IMG/VR virus record: IMGVR_UViG_2713897161_000007
Direction: 5' to 3' (one strand)
Source: a virus
Lineage: Duplodnaviria > Heunggongvirae > Uroviricota > Caudoviricetes
Length of the DNA: 26,780 nt
The translations under genes were made by a program, and so were the position numbers. The notes beneath the pieces were generated by a model, which was given only the letters and a program-made list of their open reading frames with translations, made no database searches and had not been told where the DNA came from. Positions within the stretch are counted from its first letter, which is position 1. Every line of letters starts with the position of its first letter. Positions 1 through 26,080 of this stretch are shown piece after piece.

Positions 1-1002
1 TTACCCTCTATTGTCAAAAGGGTTCAATTCAACAGCAGCCTCTAAATGACCTGGAGCAAAATGCGCATAACGCATAGTCATTTTTATATCGCTATGCCCC
101 AGTATTTTTTGCAACACAAGAATATTTCCGCCCCGCATCATAAAATGACTGGCAAACGTGTGACGTAGCACATGAGTTAATTGCCCATCAGGAAGCTCGA
201 TCTTCGCTCTCTTAATTGCAGCGTCAAAAGCCTCATAACATGGTGAAAATAGCGCTCCTCGTTTTTGAGGAAGCATAGCCTGCAATTGAGGTGAAATCGG
301 TACAGTGCGGTTCTTCTTTCCTTTAGTTTTAACAAATGTGATTCGACCGGGCAGTACTTGAGATTGCTTTAATCCTTCAGCTTCACTCCACCGAGCACCA
401 GTCGCAAGCCCAATACGGACAACAACCCCCAAATCTTTATTCCGTGACTCATCACACGCAATCAGAAGGCGTTCAATCTCATCTACATACAGAAACGCCA
501 GTTCCTTTTCTTCCTCACGAAACTTGCGAATACCAGTCAGGGGGTTTTCACCAGACCACTCCCCAAGGCGCTTCAGTTCGGCAAAAACAGCATGTAGATA
601 TGACTGCTCGCGATTAACGGTTGCTTCACTAAGTTTTTTCTTCCCCTTGGGATTCCATTCTCCTGATAGCCTTCTTTCCCGATAAGTAGCAAACATATTT
701 TTGTCAAACTGAGAAGCAAATGGATCCCCCAGCCTGGAACAAATCGCCTCAAGTTTGACTTTGCGCTCTGCACCAGAGGACAAGGTTTTACCGTACATCT
801 CAAACCAACGAGCAATCAACTCAGAAAGACGAGGACCAGAACCATCTTGAAACTCGTCTCCAACTCTACTATTCATTAAACGGCGCTCATAAGAGAGCGC
901 CTCACTTTTTGTCGCAAACTGTTTACGAATGCGTTTTCCCGATGCCCCGTAGGGATAACATTCGCAAAGCCATTTACCTGATGGAATCTTACGAACCGAC
1001 AT
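1..1002 (-). CDS. int: Tyrosine recombinase / phage integrase, P2-186 family
   Basis: 333-aa ORF. C-terminal catalytic signature (TGARWSEA, RITFVKTKGKKNRTVPIS, HVLRHTFASHFMMRGG, GHSDIKMTMRYAHF) typical of P2-type integrases. Confidence 0.9.
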   Translation of the reverse strand: MSVRKIPSGKWLCECYPYGASGKRIRKQFATKSEALSYERRLMNSRVGDEFQDGSGPRLSELIARWFEMYGKTLSSGAERKVKLEAICSRLGDPFASQFDKNMFATYRERRLSGEWNPKGKKKLSEATVNREQSYLHAVFAELKRLGEWSGENPLTGIRKFREEEKELAFLYVDEIERLLIACDESRNKDLGVVVRIGLATGARWSEAEGLKQSQVLPGRITFVKTKGKKNRTVPISPQLQAMLPQKRGALFSPCYEAFDAAIKRAKIELPDGQLTHVLRHTFASHFMMRGGNILVLQKILGHSDIKMTMRYAHFAPGHLEAAVELNPFDNRG

Positions 1003-2464: not shown

Positions 2465-2493
2465 TTGACAGGTATCTTTTTTGATACCAAAAT
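2465..2493 (+). promoter_or_regulatory. Divergent switch region: TTGACA -35-like hexamer followed by palindrome GGTATC-N6-GATACC (candidate operator)
   Basis: TTGACA at 2465-2470; perfect inverted repeat GGTATCttttttGATACC at 2471-2488 in the 75-bp gap between divergent repressor and early operon. Confidence 0.4.
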
Positions 2494-4985: not shown

Positions 4986-7822
4986 GTGCGTTTGCATGGA
5001 GCTGGAATGAACCACGGCCAGCCATTGATCCGGCCAGATTTACGGAGCGCAGGCAGGAAACTGAAACCGACCTGCAACGCGCCATCCGTTACTACCTTGA
5101 GGCAAACAAAAGGGCACAGGAAGAACAGGAAGCGAAGGAAGAAGCCTTTTTCGCACAATCCACCGTGGGTAAAAAACTCATGGCATCCCTTGAGGAAGCC
5201 GGACAGCGTGAAAAGCTGGCACAAAGCATCATCAGCAAGCGTCAGGCAACAGAACAAGACCCGGTGGCCCGTGCTTTTGCCACACTGAAGGTGCTTCCCG
5301 TTTATCTGCGTGAACCTCTGAGCCGCCACCTCTCTTTTCTGCGCAAGAAGCAGGAAGCCGATCGTCAGAAAGGCAAAAAGAGCTGGCAGGCTGAACGCTA
5401 CGCGCGCGGAACCCTGCGCAAAATATTCGAACGTCTGGACCGCACCGACAGCCGCTGGCTGACACCGGGCTATCGCTCCCTTGCCGGACGCGAACGCCTG
5501 GACGATTTGCTTTACCTGCCGCAGCTCAACAAACACCAGATACAGACGCTGGCCACCATGACGGCGGCGATGTTCAGTGGCACTTTTGAAAAACTCTGCG
5601 ATGGCTTTGGCGCGACCGATGGCGAGCTGACCATGGATGTAACGCTGAAGGCGTATCAGATGCTGGCCCGCATGGCGTTACACCTGCACGCTATGCCTCC
5701 ACATTATGACGCTCTGACAACAGACAAAGACCGGAGGAATGAACCGGACACGGAGCTGCTGCCGGGCGCAATCCTTCGCCTGACCTGTGCGGAATGGTGG
5801 AAACGCAAACTGTGGCTGTTACGTTGCGAGTGGAGAGAAGAACAACTCCGCGCCGCCTGTCTGGTTTCCAGAAAAACATCACCCTATCTGAGCCAGGACG
5901 CGTTAAGCGAGTTTCGCGCACAGCGCGAGAAAACACGCGATTTCCTGAAAAGTTTCATGCTGGAAAACGAAGACGGGTTCACGATTGATCTCGAGACAGT
6001 GTATTACGCGGGAGTAAGTAACCCGATTCACCGTAAGGCAGAAATGATGGCCACCATGAAGGGGCTGGAACTTCTGGCCGAAGCCCGTGGCGACAGAGCG
6101 GTGTTTCTGACTGTCACCTGCCCGTCAAAATACCACGCCACAACAGAGAACGGTCATCCGAATCCCAAATGGAACGGGGCCACCATGCGCGACTCCAGCG
6201 ATTACCTGGTTAACACGTTTTTTGCGGCGGTCCGCAAGAAACTGAACCGCGACGGCCTGCGCTGGTATGGCATCCGCACGGTGGAGCCTCACCATGACGG
6301 CACCGTGCACTGGCATATGATGGTCTTTGCTCATCCGGAAGAAATCGACACCATTGTGTCCCACACCCGCGATATTGCCATTCAGGAAGACCGCCACGAG
6401 CTGGGCAATGATATTACTCCGCGCTTTAAGGTGGAGTATGTCGACGGCTCAAAAGGCACGCCAACCAGCTACATCGCCACCTACATCGGAAAGAACCTGG
6501 ACAGCCGCGCCGTGGATGGCATCGACCCGAAAACGGGCAAGCCACGCGTTGACCACGAAACCGGAAAATCAATGGCCGAGAGCGTGGAACGCGCCATCGG
6601 CTGGGCACGCCTTCACCGGGTCCGCCAGTTCCAGTTCTTTGGCATCCCCTCCCGTCAGGTATGGCGTGAACTCCGCCGCCTTGCCAGCCAGATGGCACGC
6701 AACCCGGAAGGCCCACAACGGCTGAAGGATGATGCAATGGATGCGGTACTCGCTGCCGCTGATGCCGGATGTTTTGCCACCTACATTGAAAAACAGGGTG
6801 GCGTACTTGTTCCGCGCAAGGACTACCTGATTCGCACAGCCTACGACCTCGCAGATGAGCTGAACGATTACGGCGAACAGAGTGTACAGATTTACGGGAT
6901 CTGGTCGCCATTCATCGGGGAATCCTCCCGTGTGTGCACGCATCCGGATAACTGGAAGCTGGTAAGACGTAAACCGGAAGCGGAAGACAGCGCCCGCGAA
7001 AATGGTTTTGACCTTCAGGGCGGCCCTGCCGCCCCTTGGACTCGTGGCAATAACTGTCCCCGTGTACAGGAAACAGGCAACAACGGGACAGAACAGCCGG
7101 AAGAACGGCCAGCACCGTGGCCGCAGCTTCCTGACGGCGTTGAAGTAAATGAATGGATGCGCTCACTGAAACGGCACGAACGCCGGGCGCTGATGCGTTC
7201 GCTTCGTGACAAACAGGCAAAAAACAGCAGCGATGAAATGCAGAACTGGACACAGAGCCGCAAACAGCAGCGGCCTTTGCCTGATAACCACGAGTTACTC
7301 GCTAAAGAATGGCGGGAGTCTGCTGAATCTCTCGGCCTGCATATCGGTGAACAACAGATGCAGCACCTGTTACGGGGCGGCAGTCTGTACGTTGACGGCA
7401 GCATCATTGCACCGCAGGGATTTGAAATTGTACGCAAACCGGATACCCGCCCGGACAGCCGAATCACGCAGCTCTGGCAGCGTCTGAGCCGTAATCATGG
7501 CGTAAGCAGCACGGAGATCCGCCATAACCCGGTCGCCAGCTATCTGGCACAGCTGGGGGCATCAGACCCTGAAGCCGCCGCACGCCTGGCATCCACACTT
7601 CAGCAGGACCAGAACACCATGAAAACACCCGTTACCGTGCTTTCTGACATGCTGCGCGCCATCCGCGACGCAGAGCACGCACAGAGAATCAGTGAAACCA
7701 CTGAACGCGCCAGCCGCAAAGCAGACCTGCTGCGGGGTGGCCTGACCAGTGGAAACAAAAAACAGACAGAAACGGGACTCACGAATCCCGTAAATGAGCA
7801 AAAAACGCGCAGCGATATATGA
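4982..7822 (+). CDS. A: Rolling-circle replication initiator (HUH endonuclease), P2 gene A homologue
   Basis: HUH motif in TVHWHMMVF and paired catalytic tyrosines in YIATYIGK. Position matches P2 A. Start at 4982 or 4955. Confidence 0.85.
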   Translation: MSAFAWSWNEPRPAIDPARFTERRQETETDLQRAIRYYLEANKRAQEEQEAKEEAFFAQSTVGKKLMASLEEAGQREKLAQSIISKRQATEQDPVARAFATLKVLPVYLREPLSRHLSFLRKKQEADRQKGKKSWQAERYARGTLRKIFERLDRTDSRWLTPGYRSLAGRERLDDLLYLPQLNKHQIQTLATMTAAMFSGTFEKLCDGFGATDGELTMDVTLKAYQMLARMALHLHAMPPHYDALTTDKDRRNEPDTELLPGAILRLTCAEWWKRKLWLLRCEWREEQLRAACLVSRKTSPYLSQDALSEFRAQREKTRDFLKSFMLENEDGFTIDLETVYYAGVSNPIHRKAEMMATMKGLELLAEARGDRAVFLTVTCPSKYHATTENGHPNPKWNGATMRDSSDYLVNTFFAAVRKKLNRDGLRWYGIRTVEPHHDGTVHWHMMVFAHPEEIDTIVSHTRDIAIQEDRHELGNDITPRFKVEYVDGSKGTPTSYIATYIGKNLDSRAVDGIDPKTGKPRVDHETGKSMAESVERAIGWARLHRVRQFQFFGIPSRQVWRELRRLASQMARNPEGPQRLKDDAMDAVLAAADAGCFATYIEKQGGVLVPRKDYLIRTAYDLADELNDYGEQSVQIYGIWSPFIGESSRVCTHPDNWKLVRRKPEAEDSARENGFDLQGGPAAPWTRGNNCPRVQETGNNGTEQPEERPAPWPQLPDGVEVNEWMRSLKRHERRALMRSLRDKQAKNSSDEMQNWTQSRKQQRPLPDNHELLAKEWRESAESLGLHIGEQQMQHLLRGGSLYVDGSIIAPQGFEIVRKPDTRPDSRITQLWQRLSRNHGVSSTEIRHNPVASYLAQLGASDPEAAARLASTLQQDQNTMKTPVTVLSDMLRAIRDAEHAQRISETTERASRKADLLRGGLTSGNKKQTETGLTNPVNEQKTRSDI

Positions 7823-7870
7823 AGCGCGCACAAAACAGGCAAAAACGGGATTTCAGAATCCCGTAAACGA
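7759..7870. repeat. Two copies of a ~39-bp direct repeat, each with an internal palindrome ACGGGA-N7-ATCCCGT; candidate parC-like centromere/operator or origin element
   Basis: 7759-7797 and 7832-7870 are about 85% identical by eye. Palindromes at 7772-7791 and 7846-7865. Straddles the A stop and the parM upstream region. Confidence 0.5.
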
Positions 7871-7898
7871 TTAATTAATCAACATAAGGAAAACCGAC

Positions 7899-8858
7899 AT
7901 GAAAATTTACATCGACGACGGCTCCACCAACATCAAGCTGGCATGGACTGAGAACGGCGAACGCCGCAACGCCATCAGCCCGAACAGCTTCAAGTCGGAA
8001 TGGTCTGCGCCGTTCGGTGGCTCGCAGCCTGCTAACTACATGCTTGATGGCGTGCGCTATGGTTTTGATCCGGTCAGCGATCGCTTTGTCCAGACGACCG
8101 ACACGCAATACCAGTACAGCGATGTGAATGTCATTGCCATTCATCACGCGCTGGTCAAATCAGACATCACGCCACAGGAAGTGGATGTGGTTGTTACCCT
8201 GCCACTGAGCGAATATTTCGACACAAACGCACAGCCGGACATGGCCAACATCAACCGCAAAAAAGCGAACGTCATGCGCCCGGTGGAGTACCAGAACGGC
8301 GAAGCATTCACTATCCGTAACGTACGGGTTATGCCTGAATCCATTCCGGCTGGCTTTAAAGCACTGGCTGACATGAGTCCGTTTGAATCCCTGCTGATTG
8401 TGGATTTGGGCGGAACCACGCTGGATGTGGCAAAGGTTCAGGGGCAACTGGCAGGTATCAGCCAGGTGTTTTGCGATCCACACGTAGGCGTTTCTCTTAT
8501 GGCCGATGCCGTACTGTCGGTGATGGCCACTAACGGTATGCGCACCAGTCACCACATCGCCAATACCATTATCGAACATCGCCATAATGAAGCCTGGCTG
8601 CGCCAGCACATCCACAATGACGCGCATTACGCCAGCCTGATGGCGGTTATTCGTGAAAAGGAAGAAACACTGAAACAACGCGTGATCCGCGCGCTGGCGG
8701 TTTTTTCGGGTTACGGGCGGGTGATGGTTGTCGGTGGCGGGGCGGAGATTGTGGCACCCGCTATCCGCGAAGCCTGCGGAGTTAATGCGACTTTCATCGC
8801 GGACGGGGTGCCACAGTTTGCTCTGGTTAATGGGCTGTACGCAATGGACAAGGAGTAA
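7899..8858 (+). CDS. parM: ParM/StbA-family actin-like ATPase
   Basis: 319-aa ORF. N-terminus MKIYIDDGSTNIKLAW...ISPNSFKSEW and YSDVNVIAIHHAL match the plasmid R1 ParM signature. RBS AAGGA 8 nt upstream. Confidence 0.8.
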   Translation: MKIYIDDGSTNIKLAWTENGERRNAISPNSFKSEWSAPFGGSQPANYMLDGVRYGFDPVSDRFVQTTDTQYQYSDVNVIAIHHALVKSDITPQEVDVVVTLPLSEYFDTNAQPDMANINRKKANVMRPVEYQNGEAFTIRNVRVMPESIPAGFKALADMSPFESLLIVDLGGTTLDVAKVQGQLAGISQVFCDPHVGVSLMADAVLSVMATNGMRTSHHIANTIIEHRHNEAWLRQHIHNDAHYASLMAVIREKEETLKQRVIRALAVFSGYGRVMVVGGGAEIVAPAIREACGVNATFIADGVPQFALVNGLYAMDKE

Positions 8859-8862
8859 ACCA

Positions 8863-9174
8863 ATGACGACACCAACCAGACGGATAAGTTTCTATCTGAA
8901 GCCCGCCGCCGTCAAGAACGAAGGAGAAGCATGCGCCTGGCTGGACAGCCTTACACCAGAAGCCCGCAAAAGCGGCCAACGCGTGGCTTTTCTGGCCGGG
9001 CTGGCACTTCTGAAGACGAATCCGGCAGAGGCTTACCGACTGGCCGCATGGGCTGATGATGAGATGTTACCTGTGACACAAATCAGCTCAAAAAAGTTTG
9101 AAGCACAGTCTGCACCAGTGGCTAAGATAACCAGCCAGATGGCTGGGAATATCCGGGCGTTATTTCCTGAGTAA
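8863..9174 (+). CDS. parR: ParR-like ribbon-helix-helix centromere-binding protein
   Basis: 104-aa product from ATG 8863. RISFYLKPA and RVAFLAGLAL resemble R1 ParR (TIAFKLNP, RAALTAGLAL). Directly follows parM. Confidence 0.65.
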   Translation: MTTPTRRISFYLKPAAVKNEGEACAWLDSLTPEARKSGQRVAFLAGLALLKTNPAEAYRLAAWADDEMLPVTQISSKKFEAQSAPVAKITSQMAGNIRALFPE

Positions 9175-9244
9175 AAGCATCTGCGCGAAAAATGCTCACG
9201 TTTATAGAGACAGTATCATTCCATTTGGCACACTTACTTCAATA

Positions 9245-9331
9245 ATCGATCTGTTAAACAAATAGATTGTCTATTATCTATCGATTAAAACGATCAATTA
9301 TCTTGACAGTAATGTGCCTTTTTGTAAGATC
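9245..9331 (+). promoter_or_regulatory. Nested palindromes (AATCGAT...ATCGATT; TAGAT...ATCTA) directly upstream of a sigma70-like promoter (TTGACA-16-TAAGAT)
   Basis: TTGACA at 9303-9308, TAAGAT at 9325-9330; inverted repeats at 9245-9286 abut the -35. Confidence 0.35.
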
Positions 9332-9363
9332 GTTCGCATTGTGAGCGACAAGATAATTGCGCG

Positions 9364-9515
9364 GCATTGTCCATGCAAAACGCCCCAATAGCAGCAACTA
9401 TTGGGGCGTAAAACTCGGTCGGACTCACTTAACCTGATATGCGTGCCTTCCGAAGTAAATCAAAATGTGCGTCGTATATTTTATTGCTTACACGCACCTC
9501 TGTAAAGGCACGCAT
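9364..9515 (+). promoter_or_regulatory. Structured 5' leader or small RNA: hairpin CGCCCCAATAG/CTATTGGGGCG, then a long-range stem ATGCGTGCCTT/AAGGCACGCAT enclosing an inner hairpin and followed by a T-run
   Basis: Inverted repeats read directly: 9383-9410 and 9438-9510, then ATTTTT. Two short uORFs (11 and 29 codons) lie in the leader. Confidence 0.3.
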
Positions 9516-9538
9516 ATTTTTCCTATGAGGTAAATAAA

Positions 9539-9808
9539 GTGCGGGCTAAAACAGGTATTTGCAAGAACCCTCATCGTTATAATCCAACATTTCTGTCTCT
9601 CCCTGAATATCAAGGACAAGAAGGTCGGCACAAATGCGCTGCCTGTGCTTTTGAGCTAGGCATAAAAGATGCGCTTGAAGGACGCGCTATGGCTCAGAAT
9701 GATTTAGTTTTAGCTAACATTCCGTTTAGCCAGGCTGGAACTGTAAGGCACAGAGATGCCTATGAAGCATATGTTCGTGGTTGGCGATTAATAAACAGCA
9801 ACAATTGA
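9539..9808 (+). CDS. Hypothetical 89-aa protein with Cys/His cluster (possible zinc-binding), cargo in the A-cos slot
   Basis: GTG start with GAGG RBS 8 nt upstream. C-x3-H and H-x-C-x2-C spacing (ICKNPH...HKCAACAFE). Followed by an intrinsic terminator. Confidence 0.5.
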   Translation: MRAKTGICKNPHRYNPTFLSLPEYQGQEGRHKCAACAFELGIKDALEGRAMAQNDLVLANIPFSQAGTVRHRDAYEAYVRGWRLINSNN

Positions 9809-9816
9809 TACTTTTG

Positions 9817-9840
9817 AAGCGCCGATAAGGCGCTTTTTTT
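9817..9840 (+). terminator. Rho-independent terminator
   Basis: Stem AAGCGCC/GGCGCTT with loop GATA, then TTTTTTT. Confidence 0.6.
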
Positions 9841-10293
9841 GTTTGCACGATAGTGCACAAGTTTGCACAATTTTTTTGAACGACTTTTTGTACTTCCGGC
9901 CCGCGTGGTGGCTGGATCCGTCAAGGATCCGTACGTGCACAAAAAAACGCGTTTTTTCTGCGCGCAGGTGACGGGGGAACAGCCCGCGTTTCAGGGGGTA
10001 AATAGCATCCCCTGAACGATGTCGCAGCGACACAACAGAATGGCTGTATTTCTCACGCTGAGCGTGAAAAAGACGTGAGGGCTTTTGATTTGATGGGTGG
10101 CAGATAAGGCCGTCAAAATCGCACTGAGGCGGCGAGAACATGCAGTCAACGCGGTGGGATTGCGTAAGAGTCTGACCGCCGATGATGACAATAAGCAGAA
10201 AAGCGTCGTGAAATTATCTGATTGATACAGGAGCTGGAGAGTCGGGGCATAAATTTTTTATGCCCCGGCGAAGCAGCAGACAAGCGAAGCGCG

Positions 10294-11340
10294 TCAGGAT
10301 GTGGGCTGGGTATCTAGCAGTGCGTAAGGGTTAAAGCGGATCACCTCTTCGCCAAGCCAGTCATTGATGTGCTTCATGGCCTCCATGACGGGCATCAGCT
10401 CGTTAATTGCGTAAACCCGCGCGGCCTTCTCCACATCACCAAACGCACTTTTTTCGCCCGGCATCGCCCCCATCAGTTGCGGCGGAACGCGGTGCGCAGC
10501 CAGCACATCATCACGGGATGCCGCCTTAACATTCATGAACTCATCCTTTGCAGTGATCTGCTGGAACGGCAAAATTTGCACACCTTCTTTGCCCCCGTTG
10601 GGCGCATGGATGAGTACGTTTTTAAACGCACCACCACCACGCGCGCCCTGTAACGTTTCTTTCAGGGAGTCCATGCTTTCGCGGTTTACCTGCGCTGCAC
10701 CGATGTAGATGATGCACCCGGCGTGGGATCCGTTGTCGTAGTACAGTTTTCTGAACATGTCCGCCGAATGAGAAAGGCTGGCCGAGAGTAATGCGCCAAG
10801 ATATTCCGGCATGCCGTAGATTTCCTGGTTAATATCCGGATTCATCAGGTGGCACACTTTGCCAGGGCGAAACTGGAACGCGTCCTTGCCATCCTGCACA
10901 TACCACCATGATTCAAGATCGCTTCCGCGTCGCATGTATTTCGCCAGGGCGTGCCGTAATTTAAGCGGTTCGCCGAGCATATTGCTTCTAAGCTCAAGGA
11001 ATGCGTTACCGAACACAAACCAGTCCAGCGCCAGCGCCGAGAAATCCTGCCGGGAAAGCAGCGGGTGCGGGATGTAGCAACCGAGTAATACATTGCGCTT
11101 AAAGTAAAGCGCAGACTGATGCCAGGACGTTTGCCGGGCTGCTCTTGCCAGACCGTACCAGTCCACCGGGGTTTCATACCACCGTCCGTTATCAGCACAG
11201 TACATATTGTCCAGCAGGTCATGCCCGGTCAGGCGATAAGGACCATCAAATGTGAATGCACTGAGCGATGATTCTTTCCTGAGCGCATCAGCGAGATCAA
11301 TGCGTGAACTCATGCGCACTTTTTTATTTTTTCTGCTCAT
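10294..11340 (-). CDS. Q: Portal protein, P2 gpQ homologue
   Basis: 348-aa ORF immediately downstream of terminase with overlapping stop/start; size and position match P2 Q. Confidence 0.85.
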   Translation of the reverse strand: MSRKNKKVRMSSRIDLADALRKESSLSAFTFDGPYRLTGHDLLDNMYCADNGRWYETPVDWYGLARAARQTSWHQSALYFKRNVLLGCYIPHPLLSRQDFSALALDWFVFGNAFLELRSNMLGEPLKLRHALAKYMRRGSDLESWWYVQDGKDAFQFRPGKVCHLMNPDINQEIYGMPEYLGALLSASLSHSADMFRKLYYDNGSHAGCIIYIGAAQVNRESMDSLKETLQGARGGGAFKNVLIHAPNGGKEGVQILPFQQITAKDEFMNVKAASRDDVLAAHRVPPQLMGAMPGEKSAFGDVEKAARVYAINELMPVMEAMKHINDWLGEEVIRFNPYALLDTQPTS

Positions 11341-13091: not shown

Positions 13092-13245
13092 TGCTCCCCC
13101 TGAGTAATTACAGGAAGATTACCCGCGCGCGAAACTGTTCTCCTTAACCCCCTGTTCTGGCCGTTTTCTTACAACAAAATCCCTTTGTATCAGCCTGTTA
13201 CGCTTTGCCATCATGACTGAAGAACCAGTCAGAGGGGCAAAAACT

Positions 13246-14082
13246 ATGGCTAATGAAAAAAAGACATCCCGCAAAAAGTTTCGCGTGGCTGTCTCCGGAT
13301 CAACTGTTGATGGCCGTGAAATCAGTCCGGTGCATCTGCGTGAAGCCGCCGAGAACTTCAACCCGGATGTTTACGCTGCCCGCGTGAACGTTGAGCACTA
13401 TCTCTCGCCATGCCCGTCAAGCGAATTTTCCGCAATGGGCGATGTCACCGCGCTGAGTACGGAAGATATTACGGAAGGCCCGCTGGCCGGACGTACTGCG
13501 CTGTATGCAGAAATCGAACCGACCGAGCGCATGAAGCAGCTTGTCGCTGACGGCAAGAAAATCTATTCCAGTATCGAACTGCACCCGCAGTTCTCCGTTA
13601 ACGGGCGTGCCTATCTGGTCGGGCTGGCGATGACCGACACCCCGGCAAGCCTGGGCACTGAGCGCCTGAAATTCACGGCACAGCAGCGTCAGGCGGTGAT
13701 GACGTTCAACAGTATCCAGGGTGAAGCACCGCTTATCTCCGAAGCCATCGAGTCTGAAATCATCGAAATGGCAGAACAACGCCAGGAAGAAGGCACCCAG
13801 TGGTTTAACCGCGTAATGGGGATTATTGGTCGTGGCCGCAAAGCGGATGACGCCAGTTTCTCCCGTATTCAGGAAGCGGTGGAAGGCGTTGCAACATCAC
13901 AGGCCGACATTATCGACCGTTTTAATGTGCTGGAAACCCGCCATCAGTAGGACCGCCAGAAAATCACGTCACTGACCACAGAGCTGACAGCACTGAAGGA
14001 AAAACTGCGCACGCAGGACGGCGATCCGCAGAACCGCTTCACCGCAACGGGCGCAGCCTCCGACCAGCTGGCTGACTTCTGA
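13246..14082 (+). pseudogene. O: Capsid scaffold/protease gene (P2 gpO homologue) interrupted by an in-frame TAG at 13948-13950; frame continues 43 codons to TGA at 14080-14082
   Basis: N-terminus MANEKKTSRKKFRVAVSGSTVDGREIS matches the gpO pattern. After ...ETRHQ-TAG the same frame reads DRQKITSLTTELTALKEKLRTQ...QLADF with no internal ATG. Summed length is close to P2 gpO. Confidence 0.7.
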
Positions 14083-14105
14083 TAAGACAAAGGAGCAAAT
14101 TTTTT

Positions 14106-14744
14106 ATGAATCTGGTGATGTCAGATATTACCCGCAACAAGCTGGGGTGCTATATGGCGCAGCAGGCGTCGCTTAACAATATCCCGGTATCTGCACTGGT
14201 ATCGCGATTTACCGTGGAACCCGCGGTGCAGCAGCGTTTTGAAAACGCCTCAAAGGAAAGTACCGAATTTACGAAAAGAATTAACGTGATCGGCGTGACC
14301 GACCAGAAAGGCGAAAAAATCCTCCTGGACACCACCGGGCCAATTGCGCGCACGAATAGCAGTTATGACGGCATCAAACGCCGTAAAACGGTTTATGACG
14401 TGGCATCAGGGGACTCGTTATTTATTTCTGAACTCGGTCCATTACCGGAAAATGTTACCTGGTTGTCGCCGTATGGAGAGTATCAGAAGTGGAACGGCAC
14501 ATCCTGGGTGAAAGATGCAGAAGCAGAAAAACTGTTTCGGATAAGGGAGGCGGAAGAAACAAAAAACAGCCTGATGCAGGTAGCCAGCGAGCATATTGCG
14601 CCACTTCAGGATGCCGTAGATTTGGATATTGCAACGGAGGAAGAGGCATCGTTACTGGCTGCATGGAAGACATACCGGGTATTGTTGAATCGTGTTAATA
14701 CAGCGGTAGCAGCGGATGTTGAGTGGCCAGTCGCCCCACAATAA
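14106..14744 (+). CDS. Chimeric ORF: N-terminal ~90 aa of major capsid protein (gpN-like) fused in frame to the C-terminal ~120 aa of a tail fibre assembly protein (Tfa/gpG-like)
   Basis: Residues ~30-90 ([10 protein letters not shown]...[17 protein letters not shown]) match the P2 gpN N-terminus as remembered. Residues 94-212 ([23 protein letters not shown]...[11 protein letters not shown]...EWPVAP) match lambda/P2 Tfa C-termini. Junction near 14370-14385. Confidence 0.7.
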
Positions 14745-14780
14745 AGAGAAAAAGCCATCGATTGAAATATAGATGGCTTT
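14745..14780. terminator. Hairpin between convergent genes; T-rich on the minus strand (terminator for the acetyltransferase gene)
   Basis: Stem AAGCCATC (14752-14759) / GATGGCTT (14772-14779); minus-strand reading is followed by TTTTTCTCTTT. Confidence 0.5.
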
Positions 14781-14787
14781 ATGTACT

Positions 14788-15393
14788 CTATTTATACAAT
14801 ACAACACCGCTCTTTTTAGTTATATATGTGCAGTTCGATGGTATATCTTTATTTATAAAAGACATTGCACCTATTTTTACATTATCCCCAATTTTACGTG
14901 ATAATCCAATGATGCAACAATTAGCTCCGATATCAACGTTACTACCAATTTTTACTCTTGAACCAGGCATGTCACCATCTATCTGTCCAATGGTAGTATT
15001 CTGTCGTAACACCAGATTTTCACCAGCATCAACAGCAAAATGAACAACAATTCCAGCATGATGGGGAATTGTTAACCCTTTTCCAATATTTGCGCCCAAT
15101 CCAATTTCACAACCAAATTTGTTAATTATTTTACTGTTTAACTTTTTGGCTGCTTTCTTATGTAATTTATTACCATTAATATACATTTCGTTAGCCAACC
15201 GCCACCAGAAAAGGAAATTCCGGTTACGCTGTTTTTTCTCTCTTAAAAGCCTCCAGATATCCATACGTTTCCGCCGAATTACTTCATATTTCCAGAAGTT
15301 TTTTAAATTAGTAGAGTCCCCAAATAAAACAAAGTGAATTGCCATTAAGTAAGACAGCACGATAATCTCCTTAATTATTATTTCAGACCACAC
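14788..15393 (-). CDS. Hexapeptide-repeat acetyltransferase, serine O-acetyltransferase (CysE/WcaB-like) family
   Basis: 201-aa ORF with left-handed beta-helix hexapeptide repeats (IGANIGKG, IGSNVDIGAN, IGDNVKIGAM) and a CysE-like segment before them. AT-rich. Start may be GTG at 15360 after AAGGAG. Confidence 0.8.
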   Translation of the reverse strand: MWSEIIIKEIIVLSYLMAIHFVLFGDSTNLKNFWKYEVIRRKRMDIWRLLREKKQRNRNFLFWWRLANEMYINGNKLHKKAAKKLNSKIINKFGCEIGLGANIGKGLTIPHHAGIVVHFAVDAGENLVLRQNTTIGQIDGDMPGSRVKIGSNVDIGANCCIIGLSRKIGDNVKIGAMSFINKDIPSNCTYITKKSGVVLYK

Positions 15394-15516
15394 ATATTAT
15401 AAGGTTAAGAGATTATAAAATCCTGTTGTTTGTTATTCAAAAACAATTTTCTGAGAAGGACATACAACAGCAAGTCGCCAGTCACCTTCATCAGGAAATT
15501 GGCGACATACGTTAAA

Positions 15517-16011
15517 TCAGAGCAGCCCCTTAACTGAGCTGGTCGCGCTATTAAGGGATGATGTCACCTTATCTTTGAAGCCGGACAACATATCGCTGAA
15601 CGATGAGGATTGCAGGCGCTCCCGCAAATCCTCATCACAGCGTTCAAGAGTCAGTGAAAATTCTATCTTTTTCGCCTTACCGTAGCGATCAAACTCGGAG
15701 CGGGTCGTATTCGTTTCGGTCAGGACATACATGCCGTAAATCTGCCCGACGCCATCAATCAGAGGCCAGGGCCGTCCTGTATACGCCTGCGTGGTCAGCA
15801 GAGACAGCGACACTTCGCCACCTGTAATTTCAGGATAAAGCACACCAGAAAGAACGATGCGATCATCACCTGCACCGATATACTGCCAGCTTGCTGAACG
15901 GTTAACGCGTTCATTTTTCACATGCCGCCAGCTTTTGTTTTGCTGTAACTGCTGATGCGGCAGCGTGCGCAGCTCAAAAACAAACATGCCATAGATCATC
16001 ATCATGGCCAT
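15517..16011 (-). CDS. U: Tail protein, P2 gpU homologue
   Basis: 164-aa ORF downstream of the tape measure gene; N-terminus MMMIYGMFVFELRTLPHQQLQ resembles gpU. Hairpin plus T-rich tract follows on the minus strand. Confidence 0.8.
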   Translation of the reverse strand: MAMMMIYGMFVFELRTLPHQQLQQNKSWRHVKNERVNRSASWQYIGAGDDRIVLSGVLYPEITGGEVSLSLLTTQAYTGRPWPLIDGVGQIYGMYVLTETNTTRSEFDRYGKAKKIEFSLTLERCDEDLRERLQSSSFSDMLSGFKDKVTSSLNSATSSVKGLL

Positions 16012-22749: not shown

Positions 22750-23889
22750 GTGGGAAACAATAAAGTGAAATTAGGAAGAAATGATAAGTGCTGGTGTAAT
22801 TCAGGACTTAAGTATAAAAAGTGCCATCTTGGTCGAGATCGTGAAACTCCGGTATCCAAAGCCGAGGCACTGAAATTTTCAAAGTCTCTCTCGCAGAGAA
22901 AGGCATGTTATGCGCCAGCATCCATGCACGAAGATTGTGATAAACGCATCGTTCAGGCGCATACGATATCTAAGAGCAGTAGCCTTAAGGCGATCGCCGA
23001 CTCCAGCAATCACGTCATGGGGGTGATAATGAACTTAGCAAGCCTGATGAGAAACAACGGAAAATGGCTTCCCGAGAAGATCGGTATCAATCAGGCATCC
23101 ACTTTTACAGGATTTTGTGCAGTTCATGACAGAATCTTATTTTCATGCCTAGAGAACGAAAAATTTACAGGCACGGACGAGCAGTGCTTTGCCTTAATGT
23201 TTCGTTCATTGTCTAAAGAAATTTATGCCAAAGAAGGGGGAGTGCTATCTTCTGATTTTGCTAAAAATGCCGATAAAGGAAAGCTACAAGTTGAACAGTA
23301 TTATATTCAGAAATTAATCGACCAGCACCAAAGTGGCTTAAATGCAGCAATAATTGAATTAAATAATCTTAAAACTAGCCTCGACCGCATCCTACTTAGC
23401 AGGCAATTTTCAGAAATTGAAAGTGTTATCTTCACTTTTGCAGAGCCTTTACCAATTGTAGTTTCGTCAATTCTTTCACCGGAGAGGGATTTCGATGGGA
23501 CCAAAATTCAGGATTTGAGCGATCTTACAGTGTCGGCGGAACAAGTATGTTTCAATGCTTTTTCCTGCGGAGGTAAGGGATATGTAGTGTTCAGTTGGCT
23601 GAGAACTTCAACAATTATCAGACGTTTTATACGGACACTAATTAAGATCCCAGCTAACAGGATGTTCAATACCCTTCTGTATTTTTTCTTCACAAAGGCC
23701 GAAAATACATATTCATCCCCTGAGTGGTGGGACAGGCTCAGTGATAAACAGCGAGAGAATATCGGCAACATGATTATGTCAGGGGTTGAATTTTTTGGCA
23801 TACCTACATCACAGGTTGATCATTCCGTTGATTATAACGCCGCTGCACTTGAAGAGATAACATGCAGCAACAACGAAATTTGCAGCTGA
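22750..23889 (+). CDS. SEC-C-motif protein of unknown function (N-terminal zinc-binding motif plus ~350-aa uncharacterised domain); cargo between D and ogr
   Basis: 379-aa ORF with GTG start. N-terminal LGRNDKCWCNSGLKYKKCH matches the SEC-C metal-binding motif. AT-rich, preceded by ~400 bp AT-rich non-coding DNA. Confidence 0.7.
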   Translation: MGNNKVKLGRNDKCWCNSGLKYKKCHLGRDRETPVSKAEALKFSKSLSQRKACYAPASMHEDCDKRIVQAHTISKSSSLKAIADSSNHVMGVIMNLASLMRNNGKWLPEKIGINQASTFTGFCAVHDRILFSCLENEKFTGTDEQCFALMFRSLSKEIYAKEGGVLSSDFAKNADKGKLQVEQYYIQKLIDQHQSGLNAAIIELNNLKTSLDRILLSRQFSEIESVIFTFAEPLPIVVSSILSPERDFDGTKIQDLSDLTVSAEQVCFNAFSCGGKGYVVFSWLRTSTIIRRFIRTLIKIPANRMFNTLLYFFFTKAENTYSSPEWWDRLSDKQRENIGNMIMSGVEFFGIPTSQVDHSVDYNAAALEEITCSNNEICS

Positions 23890-25778: not shown

Positions 25779-25865
25779 TGGTACCCGGAGCGGGACTTGA
25801 ACCCGCACAGCGCGAACGCCGAGGGATTTTAAATCCCTTGTGTCTACCGATTCCACCATCCGGGC
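25779..25865 (-). tRNA. leuZ: tRNA-Leu (anticodon UAA)
   Basis: 87-nt minus-strand sequence GCCCGGATGG...ends CCGGGTACCA; anticodon loop TTTAAAA gives UAA. Matches E. coli leuZ as remembered. Confidence 0.95.
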
Positions 25866-25877
25866 TCGGGAAGAAAG

Positions 25878-25951
25878 TGGAGGCGCGTTCCGGAGTCGAA
25901 CCGGACTAGACGGATTTGCAATCCGCTACATAACCGCTTTGTTAACGCGCC
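25878..25951 (-). tRNA. cysT: tRNA-Cys (anticodon GCA)
   Basis: 74-nt minus-strand sequence GGCGCGTTAACAAAGCGG...CGCCTCCA; anticodon GCA. Confidence 0.95.
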
Positions 25952-26004
25952 AAATTCTTCAGGCCTTTCAGCCAGACATCCGCTGACGCCGATGTCTTTT
26001 AAAC

Positions 26005-26080
<76 letters not shown>

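Follow-up and report, generated by a model that had tools for sequence, protein, structure and literature searches.

The 26,780-nucleotide stretch of DNA analyzed here (IMG/VR virus record IMGVR_UViG_2713897161_000007; hereafter the window) contains a P2-family prophage in which the replication endonuclease gene A is followed by a candidate centromere (parC) and by parM and parR (together parMR), the genes for an actin-like segregation ATPase and a putative centromere-binding adaptor. This partition cassette belongs, as a constant component, to the replication module of the P88-like (Xuanwuvirus) phages and is not cargo of the adjoining gene hotspot. We think it very probable that the cassette works as a partition-type machine of some kind, and we favor, with moderate confidence, the fuller proposal that it is a working type II parC-parM-parR system, built into the replication module, that would act on extrachromosomal circles of phage DNA. 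The cassette itself is already known: RefSeq labels its products 'plasmid segregation protein ParM' and 'plasmid partitioning/stability family protein', the partition genes appear in the genome papers of P88 and PhiSM without being studied there, and Rousset et al. 2022 (PMC9122126) noted a putative plasmid partitioning system at the gpA-gpQ hotspot in about a quarter of P2-like phages.

The window opens at its left with an integrase gene (1-1002, minus strand), and the early region runs rightward from there. An identical region lies in the chromosome of Escherichia coli SCU-105, adjoining yecA, and the region is 95-98% identical to Escherichia phage P88, phage 520873, PhiR44_2, Citrobacter phage PhiSM and other Xuanwuvirus members (Peduoviridae). 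A first-pass annotation of the window had described an integrative prophage with a ParM-family ATPase, a ParR-like protein, two palindrome-bearing direct repeats upstream of them, and an A protein some 185 amino acids (aa) longer than that of P2 with the first repeat in its 3′ end, and each of these elements is borne out below. It had also assigned the partition genes to a variable hotspot lying between A and cos, and here the distribution points the other way. A P88-type gpA (at least 85% identity) is present in 14 phage records, and these are exactly the 14 that carry parMR. Among complete E. coli genomes, parM DNA is found in 1303 of 5426 (about 24%), and at a length coverage of at least 80% there are 1279 genomes with parM against 1320 with this gpA (about 97%). 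In a survey of the slot in related prophages, as the first-pass annotation had proposed, the point at which homology among the relatives is lost is the parR stop itself (9174) or a position within parR, and over 61 loci the stretch between the parR stop and the portal gene varies from 990 to 4170 bp, with cargo that differs by locus and includes IetA/IetS, AbiL-like genes (as called by PADLOC) and toxin-antitoxin-like pairs. Because the variation lies only after parR and gpA and parMR occur together, we place the start of the defence hotspot downstream of parR. The locus is thus the same as the gpA-gpQ hotspot of Rousset et al. (PMC9122126), with the difference that the partition genes here are a fixed extension of the replication module in one lineage, and variable defence cargo is confined to the region beyond them. 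The features of the region are collected in Table 1.

Table 1. Features of the replication module, partition cassette and adjoining hotspot (window coordinates).
Feature	Coordinates	Strand	Basis and remarks
Early-promoter-like site, TTGACA-17-CAAAAT	2465..2493	+	Consensus scan; beside divergent repressor gene, positioned as P2 Pe beside gene C
gpA replication endonuclease, long P88-type, 946 aa	4982..7822	+	PF05840, E 1e-129; RefSeq (PGAP) start 4982
Predicted ori nick-site region	~7025..7056	+	Homologous to the P2 ori nick site annotated in NC_001895; flanking protein and DNA alignment; homology only
Candidate parC unit 1	7756..7797		Palindrome ACGGGACTCACGAATCCCGT at 7772-7791; inside last 22 codons of A
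Candidate parC unit 2	7829..7870		Palindrome ACGGGATTTCAGAATCCCGT at 7845-7864; in A-parM spacer, 35 nt before parM start
parM, actin-like segregation ATPase, 319 aa	7899..8858	+	Pfam, PHROG and PDB matches; dN/dS
parR (stbB-type), putative centromere-binding adaptor, 103 aa	8863..9174	+	PF10784, phrog_2515
Variable hotspot, parR to portal gene	9175..10293		Short here; one 89-aa ORF and promoter/hairpin-like sites; outside the partition cassette

The assignment of ParM is straightforward. The protein matches both ParM domains in Pfam (PF06406 StbA_N, E value 1e-80; PF21523, E value 3e-68) and aligns end to end with the structure of plasmid R1 ParM (1mwk, E value 7.7e-92), being about half identical to it and carrying no added domain, and the phosphate- and adenosine-binding motifs are kept (DDGSTNIKL, MPESIPAG, DLGGTTLD and GGGAE). 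We compared 87 close relatives drawn from IMG/VR and GTDB genomes, in all of which ParM is at least 97.8% identical, whereas gpA falls to about 87% in the same set. The ratio of nonsynonymous to synonymous substitution rates (dN/dS) is 0.067 over 58 distinct parM alleles, which denotes very strong purifying selection, and the open reading frames (ORFs) of parM and parR are intact in essentially all of the loci examined.

The parR gene starts 5 nt past the parM stop, and its product belongs to the Plasmid_stab_B family (PF10784, E value 1e-23) and to phrog_2515, annotated 'partition protein'; it is 34% identical to R100 ParR across the N-terminal 56 aa. The alleles fall into three classes, whose identity to the copy in the window is approximately 100%, 83% and 54%, and alignment of these reveals which parts of the protein are invariant and which vary. 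In the N-terminus, MTTPTRRISFYLKP, the first 14 residues are the same in all three classes; residues 67-90 form a hypervariable linker; and the C-terminal tail is conserved as N-I-R/Q-x-L/F-F-P-E (NIRALFPE in the window's copy). The corresponding dN/dS values are 0.135 for the N-terminal domain, 0.70 for the linker, which is near-neutral, and 0.058 for the tail. This pattern fits what would be expected of a DNA-binding N-terminal domain joined by a flexible linker to a ParM-binding C-terminal helix. An AlphaFold model of the monomer, built from 33 homologues, has helices at residues 20-61 and 87-100 with disorder between them at 62-86, and a mean predicted local distance difference test score (pLDDT) of 59. 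A Foldseek comparison of this model with the PDB gave no match below E 7, and thus no fold-level support, and a PDB search with the ParR sequence gave no match. The family is restricted to prophage-type contexts in Escherichia, Shigella, Salmonella, Cronobacter and Hafnia.

The repeats upstream of parM are two direct copies of 42 nt each, 81% identical and 73 bp apart, and within each lies a 20-bp palindrome of the form ACGGGAYT-N4-AATCCCGT. Their core, GGGAYTN4AATCCC, occurs at two sites in the whole window, both in the repeats, against an expectation of 0.15, and none of 100 shuffled sequences reaches the observed number; we found no other repeat family in 7600-9500. The pair is retained in 46 of the 47 distinct upstream sequences among the relatives, and variation in the palindromes is confined to the 4-nt spacer and the outermost positions, so that the half-sites GGGAYT and AATCC are retained; all of the ParR classes have the same centromere core. 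We propose that the palindromes are a candidate ParR-binding centromere. The first-pass annotation had called the repeats iterons, which is too strong a term: a unique repeat pair sits at the expected place, but there are two units (four half-sites) and not an array of ten as in R1. The single departure among the 47, L044 (IMGVR_UViG_2657245439_000011), has lost the 73-bp interval between the units by deletion, leaving one repeat and an altered gpA C-terminus, and it offers a possible natural test of whether a single palindrome is sufficient.

The gpA protein that precedes the cassette is itself unusual, with 946 aa where P2 A has 761, an excess of 185, and 31% identity to P2 A over aa 98-750; its stop codon is at 7820-7822, and the first repeat therefore falls within the 3′ end of the gene. 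The next relatives of gpA, in Klebsiella and Salmonella phages (41-44% identity), align to aa 2-802 only. Neither P2 A nor the nearest gpA relatives thus have anything that corresponds to some 140-190 C-terminal residues, and the extension is specific to this lineage, where it occurs together with the cassette. A tblastn search for a plasmid homologue of the extension found none, and a plasmid origin for either the extension or ParR, which we considered, was set aside since tblastn returned prophage copies only. We note that the extension, the repeats and parM (7346-8858 and the equivalent segments of relatives) make up a block in which synonymous diversity is low (pS 0.07-0.09), with pS values of 0.165 in the upstream part of gpA and 0.12-0.32 in parR, and that the block is found with portal genes that are only 30% identical to one another and with all three ParR allele classes; this suggests that it has spread by recombination. 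The repeats follow the predicted ori at a distance of 0.7 kb.

There is no plus-strand terminator between A and parM, and a consensus scan detected no sigma-70 consensus on the plus strand in 6322-9302; it is therefore probable that parMR is co-transcribed with A and so expressed along with the early replication operon. The early-promoter-like site listed in Table 1 likely marks the start of this operon, which would run through A into parM and parR. Entries for the partition genes were sought in the O157 proteome and transcriptome papers and their supplements, and none were found. As to where the element resides, parM occupies 1443 places in complete E. coli genomes, of which 1441 are chromosomal and two are on plasmids, which shows that stable plasmid life is not the norm. 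The first-pass annotation had offered co-option for episomal maintenance as one explanation of the cassette, and this remains plausible for a transient extrachromosomal form, but as a standing state it is at odds with the chromosomal count. Given the apparent read-through from the early operon and the integration of nearly all copies, the substrate is probably the set of extrachromosomal circles that arise after infection or excision.

The binding of ParR to its centromere, the capture of filament ends by its tail and the pushing of DNA by filament growth are established properties of the ParM/ParR family, and they provide a scheme for the phage system. ParR dimers would bind both 20-bp palindromes upstream of parM through an N-terminal ribbon-helix-helix part, the conserved C-terminal tail would capture the ends of ATP-ParM filaments, and filament growth between two ParR-parC complexes would push two phage DNA circles apart. 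Both proteins would be made together with the early replication proteins, either after infection or after derepression and excision, and they would act on circular extrachromosomal copies produced by gpA-driven replication and not on the integrated prophage. The presumed benefit is that copies would be spread through the cell, or delivered to both daughters, before integration or packaging.

Comparison with known systems shows both close and more distant likenesses. The parC-parM-parR order, with repeats directly upstream of parM, is that of the type II ParMRC (StbA/StbB) systems of R1 and R100; ParM matches R1 ParM over its full length, and ParR belongs to the same Pfam family, PF10784. The differences are nonetheless substantial. 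In the R100 centromere a par promoter with a clear TTGACA stands between two clusters, each of five 11-bp A/C-rich direct iterons, whereas the phage cassette has two units of 42 bp that each contain a 20-bp palindrome, and no promoter detectable in the consensus scan; an autoregulated par promoter of the R1 type within parC was not found, though a weak one could be missed by such a scan. ParR is 103 aa long here and 116 aa in R1/R100, it has no relative on true plasmids detectable by tblastn, and the host is an integrating P2-family phage and not a low-copy plasmid.

Two systems of normally integrated elements are also instructive, and they run counter to the premise of the first-pass annotation that an integrating phage has no need of partition. 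The srpMRC system of SXT/R391 integrative and conjugative elements (ICEs) reduces loss of excised, rolling-circle-replicating R391; its srpC site, located in the srpM leader, is made up of four repeats, direct and inverted, and its external promoter fires on activation of the element (Carraro et al. 2015, PMC4489591). By analogy, srpC is the best published match to the repeat layout here, and the systems share an actin-type ATPase, a small adaptor, leader-borne repeats and a normally integrated rolling-circle element (PMC4489591), although the likeness is one of functional analogy only: SrpM is distant from R1 ParM and SrpR has no recognizable ParR domain, whereas the phage proteins are close canonical family members, and function has been shown for the ICE while the phage system is known from sequence. 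In the Corynebacterium glutamicum prophage CGP3, with its AlpA/AlpC/alpS system, AlpAC connects the circular DNA of the phage with actin-like filaments, and efficient replication depends on it (Donovan et al. 2015, PMC4446434). This too is an actin-like protein whose gene lies in a prophage, with a co-transcribed adaptor that binds upstream sites, and it is induced early; it differs in that the actin-like protein is of another family, the host is Gram-positive and the adaptor gene comes first, and the likeness to the cassette is by description (PMC4446434).

Several observations weigh against the proposal that the cassette partitions phage circles. There are only two parC units (four half-sites), compared with the ten iterons of R1; the ParR model is of low confidence and has no N-terminal strand; and the consensus scan could have missed a weak promoter belonging to parMR itself. 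What the phage would gain by segregating its copies within a short lytic cycle is not evident, and one phage-sized circular record, described below, leaves room for a longer episomal life.

The strongest of the alternatives is that the cassette maintains the phage as an unintegrated low-copy plasmid that persists for many generations, as in facultative phage-plasmids, a possibility raised by Rousset et al. 2022 (PMC9122126). In its favor is NZ_CP148288.1, a circular record of 34,461 bp that was deposited as a plasmid of E. coli Z1323PEC0009, from a cat, and that represents a complete P88-like phage with parMR. It has a twin integrated in the chromosome of a human strain of the same study, Z1323HEC0067, with 100% identity over the 24 kb compared. 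However, it is the only phage-sized circle among 72,556 PLSDB plasmids, the other matches being large replicons, a linear fragment and mislabelled pieces of chromosome. The predominance of chromosomal places argues in the same direction, as does the integrase, which is always present. We saw no plasmid-type replication gene, the only replicon being the rolling-circle system that gpA provides in the lytic early operon, and the sharing of one centromere core by all ParR classes would not be expected if frequent coexistence as plasmids imposed incompatibility pressure. We therefore regard long-term plasmid maintenance as unlikely. The record of phage 520873 was considered as evidence of an episome and rejected, since it is a linear prophage cut-out that includes yecA, and the 503458 record was likewise not used. 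A related proposal is that the block of gpA extension, parC and parM couples a P2-type rolling-circle initiator to actin-type segregation and so provides episomal inheritance for some generations, as a facultative phage-plasmid or carrier state; we hold this to be doubtful, but if it were true, about a quarter of E. coli genomes would hold a prophage with a hidden plasmid-like phase.

It could also be argued that the palindromes are not a centromere at all and serve instead as leftward (antisense) terminators, as stem-loops in the A-parM transcript or as sites for some other protein, with the true ParR site lying elsewhere or being absent. On the minus strand both palindromes do score as hairpins of terminator type with a T-run, and the predicted RNA fold of 7750-7900 is far more stable than that of shuffled sequences (z = -5.3). 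On the other hand, no minus-strand genes read into the palindromes, and in many relatives unit 2 has only a degraded T-run (GCGAAAGCGGG). Among 22 palindrome variants every change is one-sided and none is compensatory, so that the RNA-structure reading, despite the stable fold, is unsupported; Rfam returned nothing at the repeats, either in a scan of the window or at lax thresholds over 7700-10300. The position directly upstream of parM and the mixture of direct and inverted repeats correspond to the srpC layout, and the surrounding interval offers no other repeat family as a centromere. We consider it rather improbable that the ParR site has been misplaced, and prefer to regard the palindromes as the putative parC.

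The first-pass annotation had further suggested a defence or addiction function built from partition parts, in which ParMR-parC would exclude incoming phages or plasmids, or penalize loss of the prophage. The cassette does adjoin a proven defence hotspot, and in principle the ParR made by a prophage could attach to the parC that a superinfecting relative has in common with it. Nevertheless, neither protein matches any PADLOC model, the cassette is invariant in its lineage while the adjoining slot turns over, ParM is canonical over its full length, no toxin-like partner is present, and the consensus scan detected no promoter that would drive expression in the lysogen. With both proteins canonical and strongly conserved, the suggestion finds no support, and we judge it very unlikely.

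That the cassette is a non-functional passenger, a relic captured from a plasmid and hitch-hiking with gpA, is hardly tenable, for although the defective prophage of the window still has it, the dN/dS of parM is lower than that of gpA (0.29), whose P2 counterpart is annotated as essential, both ORFs are intact almost throughout, ParR lacks any tblastn-detectable plasmid relative and so represents an old phage-resident lineage and not a recent capture, and these selection data exclude a neutral relic.

The hotspot of the window has a single protein as cargo, the 89-aa product of an ORF at 9539-9808 (phrog_3941) with cysteine pairs; a 92-aa relative is present in other loci such as L042. The ORF has no Pfam match, and PADLOC, which was run on it together with ParM and ParR, matched no model to any of the three. 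Between parR and this ORF there is a near-consensus plus-strand promoter, TTGACA-16-TAAGAT, at 9303-9330, framed by the arms of a perfect 11-bp inverted repeat (9295-9305 and 9349-9359), followed by a perfect 12-bp hairpin at 9380-9409, which has a minus-strand T-run, and by a minus-strand promoter-like site (9506-9478) that faces the first. The arrangement over 9295-9510 suggests a small antisense RNA or a unit of the type I toxin-antitoxin kind; the lax Rfam search over 7700-10300 yielded just two sub-threshold ctRNA/sar-like matches, both on the 9380-9409 hairpin. The 19-nt cohesive end of P2 cos is not recognizable by eye in 9800-10300, and the position of cos here is assumed from synteny only.

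Further along, the prophage of the window is defective across 13213-16011, while parM and parR are intact. Its scaffold gene is truncated (245 aa), and in the ORF at 14106-14744 the N-terminus of a P2-type major capsid protein is joined with a tail-fibre assembly protein, a fusion that implies a deletion of about 11 kb that removed head, lysis, baseplate and fibre genes relative to the intact SCU-105 prophage. Rfam reports an IS009 match at 14509-14707. Near the right end of the prophage is a 379-aa ORF (22750-23889) with an N-terminal SEC-C motif, and three minus-strand tRNA genes at 25782-26080 mark the chromosomal flank. Among the related loci, a 226-kb contig labelled Vagococcus sp. WN89Y (NZ_JBQPOM010000071.1) contains the same enterobacterial prophage region, in which ParM shows 97% and the portal 99.7% identity, and the Gram-positive label is probably due to contamination or a mislabelled assembly.

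For annotation, these results mean that searches of the gpA-gpQ hotspot for defence systems should leave the cassette out. Its presence in roughly a quarter of complete E. coli genomes makes it maybe the commonest actin-type segregation system in the species. If the cassette does position or distribute phage circles once infection or induction has occurred, then active partition of integrating elements would extend from SXT/R391 ICEs and CGP3 to a widespread lineage of coliphages, and it would help to explain how P2-family phages avoid abortive lysogeny.

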